This document shows, one piece after another, positions 1 through 3,549 of a stretch of DNA of 64,000 nucleotides. Under the pieces are notes generated by a model. It searched no databases. It had not been told where the DNA came from and saw nothing but the letters and a program-made list of their open reading frames with translations. Positions within the stretch are counted from its first letter, which is position 1; each line of letters starts with the position of its first letter. Origin of the DNA: Planctomycetota bacterium (GTDB lineage: Bacteria; Planctomycetota; B15-G4). The stretch spans positions 192,001 to 256,000 of the forward strand of contig JBBQUR010000003.1 in NCBI GenBank assembly GCA_038212275.1, written 5' to 3'. The position numbers and the translations under genes were made by a program.

Positions 1-410
1 TGATGCGGCGCACGGGCGACAGGTCGCCGTCGACGAAGACCGCGCCGAGCACGGCCTCCACGGCATCGGCGACGACGGACGCGGGCGTCCTGCCCGAGGT
101 GCGGATGCCGGGCCCGAGCGTCAGCAGCGCATCGAGGTCCCAGTGCTCCGCGACCTTGCTGAGCGCATGCCGCGAGACCACGGCGCTCTTGATGCGCGAC
201 AGCTCGCCCTCCTCGCGCTCCGGGAAGCGGTGGTAGAGATCCTGCGCGATGCACAGGCCCAGTACGGAATCACCCAGGAATTCCAGGCGTTCATTGGGGA
301 GCTGCGCCTCGCTGCGCGCCGAAGCGTGGGTCAGCGCCATCGCGGCGAGGCACTTGTCGTGGAAGACGTAGCCGAGCACGCGCTCCAGCGCGGCGATGCG
401 TTCCTCGTCG
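1..410 (-). other. rnc: RNase III nuclease domain, the C-terminal part of the fusion (partial)
   Basis: Contains LERVLGYVF, ALTHAS, the signature NERLEFLGDS (starting at 295), EGELSRIKSAVVS and ADAVEAVLGAVFVDG. Confidence 0.92.
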
Positions 411-1615
411 GCGGGCGTCGGCTCGGGAGCCGGCACCGCGTTGCGCGCGGCGGCGAGCCGGCGCCACTCGTCCATCGCGAAGCGGTCGGTCATGCCGGCG
501 ACGTAATCACACACGCTTCGGCCGAGGCCGTCGCGCTCGATGCGCCTGCGATAGTCCGCGGGGAGCTGGCCCGGGTGGCCCTGGTAGTGCGTGACGATGA
601 CGGCGATGGCCTCGCGCGCCGTGGCCGCCGAGCGCAGCACGCGCGGGTGCCGGTAGAAACGCTCCAGCAGGAAGCCCGCGAGCTGCCGATGCTGGGCGCC
701 GCGCGCCGGCGAGAAGCGCACGAGGCGCCCCGGCTGCGCGGCGACGTCCTCGGCGTTGCGCGCGCCGCACGCCGCGAGGTGCTTGCTGGACTGCGCGACG
801 ATGTCGTGCAGCGAGGTGCGCACGATGCGCGAGAGCACGGTCTTGCGCGCCGGCGGCACGCTGGCCGACGCGCCGCCCTCGCCGGCCGCGCGCGCCTCCT
901 CGTCGGCCTGGCGCCAGATGTCCAGGCCCTGCAGATCCTCCTCGCGCAGGATGCCGGCGCGCAGGCCGTCCTCCAGGTCGTGGTGCTGATACGCGGTGCT
1001 GTCCGCGAGGTCCACGCACTGCGCCTCGAGCAGCAGGCCCGCGGAGACCGGCGCGCCGAGGCCCGCATCGCCGCCGTGCTTCAGGATGGAGCGTCGCAGC
1101 GCGTGCGTGAGGTTGAGGCCCTCGCGGTCCGGGTAGGGGCTCTCCAGCACATCGATGATGCGCAGCGCCTGGCGATTGTGATCGAAGGGCACGCCGCAGC
1201 GCTCGTCCAGGATGCGCTCGCCCTCGTGCCCGAACGGCGGGTGGCCGATGTCGTGCACCAGCGCGAGCGCCTCGCCGAGGCCCTCGTTGAGGCGCAGCGC
1301 GAGGCACAGGTAGCGCGCCATCTGCGCGACCTCCAGCGTGTGCGTCAGCCGCGTGCGGTAGAAGTCGCCCTCGTCGATGACGAAGACCTGCGTCTTGTCC
1401 TTCAGCCGCCGGAACGCCCCGCAGTGCACGATGCGATCGCGGTCGCGCACGAAGGCCGGGCGGAATGGGTCAGGCTCTTCCGCGACGGGCCGGGCGTCGT
1501 TGGCGTCGGAGAAGCAGGCGAGCGGCGAGAGCCACTCGTGCTCGCGGCGCTCGGCGTCGGTGCGGACGGAGATCTCGGGCGCTGCGAGATCGCTCCCGGG
1601 ATGGGGCGTGAGCAT
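1..1615 (-). CDS. dgt: dGTP triphosphohydrolase (HD family) fused in frame to ribonuclease III; 3' end runs off the window
   Basis: Manual translation from ATG 1615 gives FVRDRDRIVHCGAFRRLKDKTQVF, RTRLTHTLEVAQ, HDIGHPPFGHEGE, DLADSTAYQHHDLEDG and DYVAGMTDRFA. It continues with no stop into ALTHAS..NERLEFLGDSVLG. The ORF is absent from the track because it has no in-window stop. Confidence 0.92.
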   Translation of the reverse strand, partial: MLTPHPGSDLAAPEISVRTDAERREHEWLSPLACFSDANDARPVAEEPDPFRPAFVRDRDRIVHCGAFRRLKDKTQVFVIDEGDFYRTRLTHTLEVAQMARYLCLALRLNEGLGEALALVHDIGHPPFGHEGERILDERCGVPFDHNRQALRIIDVLESPYPDREGLNLTHALRRSILKHGGDAGLGAPVSAGLLLEAQCVDLADSTAYQHHDLEDGLRAGILREEDLQGLDIWRQADEEARAAGEGGASASVPPARKTVLSRIVRTSLHDIVAQSSKHLAACGARNAEDVAAQPGRLVRFSPARGAQHRQLAGFLLERFYRHPRVLRSAATAREAIAVIVTHYQGHPGQLPADYRRRIERDGLGRSVCDYVAGMTDRFAMDEWRRLAAARNAVPAPEPTPADEERIAALERVLGYVFHDKCLAAMALTHASARSEAQLPNERLEFLGDSVLGLCIAQDLYHRFPEREEGELSRIKSAVVSRHALSKVAEHWDLDALLTLGPGIRTSGRTPASVVADAVEAVLGAVFVDGDLSPVRRI

Positions 1616-2382
1616 GGGACAGCCTCGTGGGGCTGCCCGCGGCGGGAAGCGGCCCGACATCGCCAGGTCTCGCGCCGCCGCGCCGCATGCGCGTGCCGAG
1701 CGTCAGGAGTCCGGAAGGGTCGCTTGCCGTCATGGGCAGGGCGGACAGGATAGCGCGATCGACGGGGCAGTCGGTGGTCCGGAAAGCCGCGGCAGTCCGG
1801 CCATCGGCAGGCGCAGGTGGCGGATCGCCGCTCGTCAGGTCACCTTCCGGGATGCAGGCATCCTCGATCCAGGGTCGGTGGGTGACGCACGTAGGCGGCA
1901 TCCCGGAGGTGCCCATCATGCGGCGCACCGGCCCTGACTGTGTGGCTGACGACGGCTTGCGCCTGCATGCCGGTGTCTGCGCGCCGGGTGGGCCGCGCGA
2001 GAGGATCCAGGCGCTCGTGCCCGTGCGCTGTCACGCCGGCTTCGGCTCACGCCGGGCGTGCGCTGCCTGCAGCCAGGTCCGCGTCTGCGCGTTTCCAGCA
2101 GGTTGGTGCACGTGTTGTAGCCGGCGCGGCTGATCGAGAGTTGTGCGCGCGCGAGGCACGGCAGGAAGTCGGGGCCGAAGGGCCGCAGCACGAACGGGCC
2201 GGTCGGTGGCGCCGAAGTGTTCCCCGAGGCGGGCAAATGCCGGATCGGCGTGCACGAGCACCGCGTCGAAGCCGTCGCGCGGGCTTGCCAGCACGCGCTC
2301 GTCGTCTGCGCAGGCCTCCTCCTGCCGCGTCCGCGGAGCGGCTGTCAATGCGATCGGTCGGCCGGTAGGCTCCGCGATCGCC

Positions 2383-3549
2383 GTGGCGCACCGATCCTTT
2401 CGCTACCTCGACAGCCGACTCCGCGTCCACGCGGATGACGAGACTCTGCGCTGGCTGGAAGAGTTCCTGACTCCGTCGTTCGTGGTGGGTGACGACGCAG
2501 GTGACGGTGACGACGCAGGTGACGGTGACGACGCAGGTGACACCGACGGGCCAGCGCGCGCGCACTGGGTCGTTCGACTGCAGCGCGATGCGGCTCGCTA
2601 CGCGGCACTCTCGGCGACCGCGCTTCACGAGGAGCGCCGGCCGCTTCCTGCCTTCGCGCTCGACACCGAGGTGCGCTGCTACCCGGGACACGTGCACGAA
2701 GGCCAGTCGGTGCTCTTCGATGAACAGGACGAATGCCTGATCCGGCTGCACGAGGACGGCGCCGACATCGTCGCGCCCCCGCACTCGGCGGGCTGTCGCC
2801 TGGCGCTGCTGCGCGTCGTGCGCGAGCTCGCCGTGCAGGCGCACCGGCGCGTGAGCGGCGGGCTGTCGCTGCACGCAGCCGCGTTCGCCGTCGGCGAGGA
2901 GGCCGTGATCGTCGCCGGCCCGAAGAACGCCGGCAAGACGACGCTGCTGGTGGACGCGCTGCGCGGCGGTGAGGCTCGCTTCATCGCGAACGACCGGGCC
3001 TTCGTCACGCTCGGCTCTCGCACGACCTCGGTTTCCGGAGTGCCCACGGTGGTGAGCGTCAGACCGGGGACGCTGGAAAAATGCCCGGAGCTGCTGCGCG
3101 GCATCGCGCGCGTGCCGCGCACGTCGCTTCACTCGCTGGAGGAGATGCGGGCTGCGCTTGCGCGGCACGAAGGCCAGGGCGGCGCGGAGCCGCTGCGGAT
3201 CTCTCCCGCGCAGTTTCTCGCGTCGCTGAAGGCGAGCGCCGTGCGCGGCGGCCGTCTCTCCGCGATTCTCGCGTGCGAGATCAGCCAGGACATCCGGGGA
3301 CACCGCCTCGATCGGCTCGCGATCGCCGACGCGACCGCCGCGCTGGAGCGCTGCCGCTACGGCAGCGGCGCGCAGCGCACCGTGTTCTCCGATCTCGCTG
3401 GTCGCGGCGAGCTGCCCGACGACACCCGCCTTGCCGGCAAGCTGGCCGGCCGGATTCCCGTCTTCCGCTGCCGCCTCGGGCGCGGCGCCTGCGCTCCGCC
3501 GGAGGGCGCTTCGGCGCTGCTGCGCGAGGTGCTGCAAGGCGTGTCGTGA
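2383..3549 (+). CDS. HPr kinase-like P-loop kinase
   Basis: LHAAAF..IVAGPKNAGKTT (Walker A) and FIANDRAFV, an HprK-like acidic motif. Start uncertain; the frame is open from 2143. Confidence 0.65.
   Translation: MAHRSFRYLDSRLRVHADDETLRWLEEFLTPSFVVGDDAGDGDDAGDGDDAGDTDGPARAHWVVRLQRDAARYAALSATALHEERRPLPAFALDTEVRCYPGHVHEGQSVLFDEQDECLIRLHEDGADIVAPPHSAGCRLALLRVVRELAVQAHRRVSGGLSLHAAAFAVGEEAVIVAGPKNAGKTTLLVDALRGGEARFIANDRAFVTLGSRTTSVSGVPTVVSVRPGTLEKCPELLRGIARVPRTSLHSLEEMRAALARHEGQGGAEPLRISPAQFLASLKASAVRGGRLSAILACEISQDIRGHRLDRLAIADATAALERCRYGSGAQRTVFSDLAGRGELPDDTRLAGKLAGRIPVFRCRLGRGACAPPEGASALLREVLQGVS

Follow-up and report, generated by a model that had tools for sequence, protein, structure and literature searches.

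In-frame fusion of a dNTP triphosphohydrolase and RNase III in one family of uncultured Planctomycetota

Can a bacterium make its deoxynucleoside triphosphate (dNTP) triphosphohydrolase and its RNase III as one polypeptide, and if so, is this a housekeeping enzyme, a defence device or an error in the sequence? The question is raised by the left edge of a 64,000-nt stretch from a Planctomycetota bacterium (assembly GCA_038212275.1, contig JBBQUR010000003.1, forward-strand positions 192,001 to 256,000), which we call the window and which corresponds to G000:C3:192001-256000, where G000 is the source genome and C3 the contig. A first-pass annotation of the window had proposed that an in-frame fusion of a dGTPase (Dgt) and RNase III (Rnc) starts from an ATG at position 1615 on the minus strand, and that it is hidden from the list of open reading frames (ORFs). 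Our analysis bears out the fusion, and we consider it very probable that, in this lineage only, dgt lost its stop codon and was thereby joined to its operon neighbour rnc, resulting in a bifunctional housekeeping enzyme. Below, positions without a prefix are window positions.

Translation of the minus strand from 1615 to 1 gave 538 residues without a stop, with the N-terminus MLTPHPG, and reproduced the motifs quoted in the annotation in the order DYVAGMTDRFA, linker AAARNAVPAPEPTPADEE, NERLEFLGD and ADAVEAV. The domains were recovered with Pfam, all above curated cut-offs, namely HD at residues 89-208 (992-1351), HD_assoc at residues 299-386 (458-721) and RNase III at residues 420-531. The frame runs 452 nt (151 codons) past window position 1, and both the double-stranded RNA (dsRNA)-binding domain (dsRBD) and the stop codon (C3:191546-191548), which the annotation had expected to be found by extending the contig, lie to the left of the window. 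The protein is thus 689 aa long from ATG 1615, or 704 aa if started at the alternative upstream ATG 1660, and the in-window part of the coding sequence (1..1615) accounts for residues 1-538. Because the frame leaves the window at its left edge, it is absent from the default ORF list, as had been claimed, and is listed (as 2..1660, '3open') only when open ends are allowed.

The protein is laid out as an HD plus HD_assoc dNTP triphosphohydrolase, a short linker, an RNase III consisting of catalytic domain and dsRBD, and a disordered acidic tail, all encoded on the minus strand. The triphosphohydrolase module (452..1507, residues 37-388) aligns end to end with TT1383 (PDB 2dqb). It is followed by the stop-free linker AAARNAVPAPEPTPAD (404..451, approximately residues 389-404) and by the in-window part of the RNase III catalytic domain (2..403, residues 405-538), which contains NERLEFLGD and ADAVEA. 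The dsRBD (approximately residues 555-628) and the disordered tail (631-689) are encoded just outside the window, at C3:191549-192000. The C-terminal tail (approximately residues 626-689, C3:191549-191740) is acidic and repetitive, with GDLGDLGD followed by four to five copies of ASD; in the structure model described below its predicted local distance difference test (pLDDT) value is <50, and with 16% identity among orthologues it is not conserved.

Both halves appear to be complete enzymes. The N-terminal module matched the NCBIfam model TIGR01353 (dGTP_triPase) with 245.6 bits against a cut-off of 152.35, and the Pfam families PF13286 (73.9 against 22.2) and PF01966 (53 against 22). The equivalog model NF002326 scored 338.7, under its cut-off of 390, and the dNTPase half is therefore a member of the subfamily rather than of the named equivalog. 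Its closest solved structure is that of Thermus thermophilus TT1383 (2dqb; E 1.5e-76, approximately 40% identity), and both dNTPase activity and hexamer formation are predicted for this module. The C-terminal half scored 200.2 with the RNase III equivalog TIGR02191 (cut-off 166.25), residues 411-625 corresponding to model positions 2-219 of 219; since the model is matched over its full length, the RNase III part is complete, dsRBD included. The dsRBD is recorded as PF00035 for fused relatives. The acidic residues of RNase III are present as E442, E445, D449, E471, D517 and E520, the equivalents of E. coli E38, E41, D45, E65, D114 and E117. Homodimerisation and cleavage of dsRNA would be expected of a domain with this sequence.

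A missed stop codon or indel at the junction could produce such a frame by error of assembly or sequencing, and this deserves consideration, as we are dealing with a draft genome assembled from a metagenome, whose own source sample may be the public run that matches best. A Logan contig from this run (X1; 4763 nt, depth 28) covers positions 1-1700 with 0 differences, but given that X1 is possibly the source sample, it stands for an independent assembler, not for an independent sample. A second contig, of 312 nt and from another study (X3), spans positions 381-692. It differs by 26 substitutions and by a pair of indels at 397/399, one of -1 and one of +1; as the two compensate each other, the reading frame is kept across the junction. 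Run X2 contained part of the stretch only, with no piece across the junction. The annotation had suggested mapping reads to this site, and the public contigs (not raw reads) that cross it show no stop and keep the frame. The comparative evidence is much stronger than that from the contigs: the junction is also stop-free in 13 other genomes and in approximately 47 independent protein clusters, from several sources. We regard an artefact as effectively refuted.

The comparative evidence comes in the first place from the same GTDB family, where 13 of 15 other genomes had one match across both modules without a stop, so that the combination of HD and Ribonuclease_3 that the annotation had wished to see in relatives is indeed there and the relatives do not all have split genes. 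The two exceptions were G006, with only a fragment at a contig end (residues 4-222), and G010 (84% complete), with no match. On direct translation, all 14 complete loci of the family, including that of the source genome, were a single ORF that is stop-free across the junction. The remaining four families of the class contributed 26 genomes, all of them with separate genes; the split state was translated directly in 11 of these, and 11/11 were split, two of them by a single in-frame TGA. In most of the split loci of the class, rnc directly follows dgt on the same strand, while the genes are mostly 1.5-5 kb apart in family f4. In G025 and G028, dgt, a TGA, approximately 15 codons and rnc follow one another in a single reading frame. 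This is the state before fusion, from which one point mutation would lead to the fused form.

The phylum sample comprised 151 genomes, 146 of them outside the family, and dgt and rnc did not share an open frame in any of these 146. However, dgt was found directly upstream of rnc in at least 12 of the 146 when coordinates were compared by hand (G016, G020, G043, G108, G082, G132, G137, G159, G177, G113, G052 and G134). Large automated open-frame values had pointed to independent fusions in G043, G108, G137, G082 and G162, but these proved to be split or unrelated on direct translation. The automated lengths were likewise too large for G015 (1810 aa) and G004 (2059 aa), where direct reading of the ORF gave 642-669 aa and 641 aa, respectively. 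All fusion calls therefore rest on direct translation, as automated open-frame length alone is unsuitable in high-GC genomes. At the split locus L034 (G082:C545:6300-10542), the rnc match lies in two frames (residues 405-485 and 495-650 of the fused protein), and this rnc may be frameshifted or affected by an assembly error.

In protein collections, we found approximately 47 clusters at 90% identity that combine HD, HD_assoc, RNase III and dsrm domains. They are 54-81% identical to the protein described here, are metagenomic, and derive nearly all from Planctomycetota metagenome-assembled genomes. A HMMER search of 1.84 billion representatives at 50% identity returned a single protein spanning both modules among the best 150 matches (P0049, 693.6 bits), and the next match, at 311 bits, was a single-module protein. 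The long or multi-stretch matches P0246, P0259 and P0260 turned out to be tandem RNase III proteins lacking a Dgt part. A pattern scan of genome contigs with the fused alignment, using patterns taken from the Dgt part, kept 80 loci, mostly stand-alone dgt genes of many phyla, and did not surface the close fused relatives; at L053, L063 and L085, which matched both modules, stops separate the two. One fused protein (P0047; locus L027, G013:C35) bears the submitter label 'Pseudohongiellaceae bacterium', a gammaproteobacterial family. This is probably a taxonomic mislabel, as G013 is placed in the Planctomycetota family studied here.

The source genome contains no further candidate for either activity: PF14622, PF00636, PF13286 and TIGR01353 each matched this locus only, which answers the question of a second rnc or dgt for a genome that is 91% complete. 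With a sole copy of either gene, the fused protein most likely does both ordinary jobs. The pattern of conservation is in agreement with this. The annotation's statement that the catalytic residues of both parts are intact extends to the fused proteins in general, since each is kept in 45-48 of 48 fused proteins: H121, D122, D202, E445, D449 and E520 in 48/48, H92 in 47/48 (one gap), E471 in 47/48, D517 in 46/48 (two N) and E442 in 45/48 (three Q). On average, the Dgt module is 69% identical to that of the protein described here; the corresponding figures are 67% in the RNase III domain and 68% in the dsRBD, but only 32% in the linker and 16% in the tail. The linkers of fused orthologues are approximately 20-65 aa long and variable in sequence, some being rich in Gly and Ser. 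The difference between modules and linker, together with the variability of the latter, indicates that both enzymes are under purifying selection and that the junction behaves as a tether. In FastTree phylogenies, the 14 fused sequences formed one clade, with support of 1.0 for Dgt and 0.935 for Rnc, and such monophyly agrees with one fusion event at the root of the family. These trees were midpoint-rooted and included 32 loci for Dgt and 29 for Rnc (three loci had no Rnc part); G006 and G010 are not represented.

Taken as a stop-loss fusion of housekeeping neighbours, the locus would have arisen as follows. The ancestor of one family within an uncultured class of Planctomycetota would have had a dgt gene encoding a TT1383-type HD-domain dNTP triphosphohydrolase, located directly upstream of rnc in a conserved array of dgt, rnc and mfd. 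This dgt would have lost its stop codon, and the short intergenic stretch would have become a flexible linker. The product would be one polypeptide comprising a complete dNTPase and a class-1 RNase III that is likewise complete, passed on by vertical inheritance. By homology, the N-terminal module would trim dNTP pools, while the C-terminal module would dimerise and cleave dsRNA, for example in rRNA precursors. The main effect of the fusion may then be a fixed 1:1 co-expression and co-localisation of two enzymes. The open frame and its domains, the conserved catalytic residues, the distribution among genomes, the single origin of the fusion, the gene order and the presence of a sole copy were observed directly, whereas we infer both activities, the oligomeric state and a lack of cross-regulation between the halves.

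Several points weigh against this reading. A second rnc or dgt could be located in the missing part of the source genome, a metagenome-assembled genome. The only RNA run that we found (X13, share 0.06) gave short contigs approximately 90% alike, over conserved segments only. The adjacency of dgt and rnc across several families hints at a functional link beyond chance, and a view of the fusion as purely neutral leaves this adjacency unexplained. The PADLOC dGTPase model matches with 266.7 bits (E 1.1e-79), so that a role of the dNTPase module in defence stays conceivable on sequence alone; the PADLOC library has no cut-off for this model, which may also recognise Dgt homologues with housekeeping functions. 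Lastly, an in-frame GTG or ATG occurs near or within the linker (from the GMTD motif to the N-terminal helix of RNase III) at 13/13 fused loci examined (the 14th had no motif match), and these codons leave room for separate translation of RNase III.

Two proteins might thus be made in spite of the fused ORF, through such an internal start or by cleavage of the linker, and the fusion would then be of no consequence for the proteins; it speaks for this that a Val encoded by GTG lies approximately 18-22 residues after GMTD in 9/13 loci. However, no start candidate is conserved in position together with a consistent Shine-Dalgarno-like sequence, such sequences being sporadic, and GTG is presumably frequent as a Val codon in DNA of this GC content. 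Further, the stop is absent throughout the radiation of the family, at each of the 14 complete loci, which is unexpected if a separate RNase III were selected, and internal initiation would in any case still leave the full-length protein. We therefore think it improbable that the two enzymes are separate products.

If a single protein is made, do its parts talk to each other? An AlphaFold2 (AF2) model built from 46 fused sequences had a mean pLDDT of 85.6 and a predicted template modelling (pTM) score of 0.66. It places a coil at approximately residues 392-400 between the last helix of Dgt and the first helix of RNase III, with the structured modules only approximately 9-16 residues apart, and shows a canonical alpha-beta-beta-beta-alpha dsRBD at 559-628 and a disordered tail at 631-689. 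Foldseek found no solved chain covering both modules. A complex prediction of Dgt (14-392) against RNase III (402-630), with a 46-row alignment for each, gave a score of 0.00 and a mark of 0.32, and says nothing about docking.

The genes around the fusion bear on the same question. The next gene downstream, on the strand of the fusion, is mfd, encoding the transcription-repair coupling factor (L041:8221-11697 by domain matches); its longest ORF overlaps the region that encodes the acidic tail (C3:191546-191697, equal to L001:1046-1197), and its product has the domains UvrB_inter, CarD_TRCF_RID, DEAD, Helicase_C and TRCF. The gene follows rnc at 12/14 fused loci, with no match at L017 and L018, and at most of the split loci examined, two of them outside the class. 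We know of no reason for a linkage of dNTPase, RNase III and Mfd. Upstream and around the locus are an unassigned ORF, an APH-like kinase, MlaA, a beta-lactamase-family protein, a phosphodiesterase and a peroxiredoxin. There are no defence genes among the neighbours of the fused gene, and the neighbourhood is one of housekeeping genes, not a defence island.

The annotation had left two readings side by side, a lineage-specific fusion of housekeeping genes and a coupling of the two activities in defence or stress. The former agrees with the sole copy, the vertical inheritance and the dgt-rnc-mfd array, while the latter gained no positive support. In a coupled sensor-effector, the RNase III arms would bind or cleave dsRNA originating from phage, antisense transcription or R-loops and allosterically switch the dNTPase so as to deplete dNTPs, possibly in cooperation with co-transcribed Mfd. 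Fused operon neighbours often are interacting partners (the 'Rosetta stone' logic), and the linkage of dgt, rnc and sometimes mfd is conserved well outside the fused family. The PADLOC match and the short distance between the modules in the model also point in this direction. Nucleic acid is known as an allosteric activator of hexameric dGTPases: according to PMC9257424, hexameric homologues consist of three dimers in parallel arrangement, and single-stranded DNA activates E. coli dGTPase at the intradimer interface. On the other side stand the sole-copy status of dgt and rnc in this genome, their vertical inheritance, a fixed setting among housekeeping genes in which no defence genes were seen, and a score of 186.7 with the NCBIfam anti-phage dGTPase model NF041026, far under the cut-off of 400 (NF003701 is likewise under its cut-off, with 145.9 against 383). 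A linker of approximately 20-65 aa with variable sequence is expected of a passive tether, not of an allosteric connector, and the pTM of the monomer model is modest. All in all, we consider this coupling unlikely.

The geometry nevertheless invites a more specific proposal. Given three parallel dimers per dNTPase hexamer, a hexamer carrying three RNase III dimers seems geometrically plausible. One could imagine that the hexamer displays them in this manner, that binding of dsRNA tunes dNTP hydrolysis, and that together with Mfd the protein forms a nucleic-acid surveillance module, a bacterial counterpart of sorts to SAMHD1 with its regulation by nucleic acids. We see this as a long shot. If it were true, possible settings for the module would be phage defence or conflicts between transcription and replication, and the conservation of dgt-rnc-mfd would reflect an unrecognised functional link between RNase III and dNTP pools, also where the genes are separate.

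For regulation of the locus, we observed little. A promoter and terminator scan of the locus returned 0 sites, and Rfam gave 0 matches at E <= 0.1 over the 5-kb locus, and thus no rncO-like element. The 285-nt leader (1616-1900, minus strand) folds slightly more stably than shuffled sequences (z-score -2.24), 3/200 of which fold as well; this is a weak hint at best, and too weak for claiming a hairpin through which RNase III would regulate itself in the manner of rncO in E. coli. Further away, at approximately 2480-2560, there is a short tandem repeat that reads on the plus strand as three copies of DDAGDG within the ORF at 2143-3549 and as VTVTTQ or VTCVVT in other frames; the ORF had no Pfam match. 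Using the Era model TIGR00436, no clear Era was seen in the source genome; the best matches were two GTPase domains in one 617-aa frame (G000:C31:23021-24031), which resembles Der/EngA. According to PMC10582724, era is present in only some Planctomycetota.

Like the annotation, which knew of no described Dgt-Rnc fusion, we found none in the full-text literature that we searched; subscription-only papers, InterPro and Pfam were outside the scope of this search and may list the architecture. Both enzymes are textbook proteins, but their joint domain architecture is new to the searchable literature. Public records name the fused proteins by one half ('ribonuclease III', 'dGTPase' or 'dNTP triphosphohydrolase') or as 'hypothetical protein', and with such names the proteins are under-described and a genome may wrongly seem to be without rnc or dgt. 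The locus is of value as a clean, datable stop-loss fusion whose pre-fusion state, one codon away, is alive in sister families. Together with the wider dgt-rnc-mfd linkage, it hints that Planctomycetota coordinate the control of their dNTP pools with the processing of dsRNA. If there is no such coordination, the fusion is a tidy curiosity of modest evolutionary interest, and not a new defence system.

How does the fused protein compare with known systems? For the N-terminal half, the nearest is TT1383. Residues 37-388 align with residues 22-375 of its 376-residue chain, the motifs RLTHTLEV, HD(I/L)GHPPFGH and VDL(A/S)D are common to both, and the metal ligands H92, H121, D122 and D202 are identical to their counterparts in 2dqb (H...HD...D). 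Foldseek aligned the predicted fold to it with a target-normalised TM-score of 0.91 and a root-mean-square deviation of 2.2-3.0 over approximately 375 columns. The difference is that TT1383 is a stand-alone protein of approximately 376 aa, whereas here the C-terminus runs on into RNase III. According to PMC11071499, TT1383 hydrolyses all four dNTPs and requires dNTP activators and Mg, and a Dgt of Caulobacter has a housekeeping role in the cell cycle.

The C-terminal half resembles class-1 RNase III enzymes such as those of E. coli (7r97) and Aquifex aeolicus (2ez6), with NERLEFLGD, ADAVEA and a single C-terminal dsRBD. Residues 408-626 align with residues 7-224 of the 226-aa E. coli enzyme, through the dsRBD, and the predicted fold has target-normalised Foldseek TM-scores of 0.78-0.83 to RNase III structures. 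Unlike these enzymes, it is without a start codon of its own, sits behind a dNTPase of 390 aa and is followed by an acidic tail of approximately 60 aa, and it is not encoded in an rnc-era operon but has mfd downstream instead.

Anti-phage dGTPases, which are reportedly the subject of a preprint by Tal et al. (10.1101/2021.04.26.441389), belong with the fused protein and SAMHD1 to the HD dNTPase superfamily. The fold match to the anti-phage dGTPase 9p8w is weaker, however (TM-score 0.58, 21% identity), and the fused gene is fixed, syntenic and sole-copy, rather than a patchily distributed cargo of defence islands or mobile elements. SAMHD1 is described in PMC7854603 as a dNTPase that also binds nucleic acids. 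Fusions of Era to RNase III or to YbeY are mentioned in PMC10582724 as an unexplained class. Era is a ribosome-assembly GTPase with an obvious pathway in common with RNase III, whereas for the dgt partner, a nucleotide-pool enzyme, none is known; the Era-RNase III fusions are nonetheless the nearest precedent, as they too have rnc joined to an operon neighbour.

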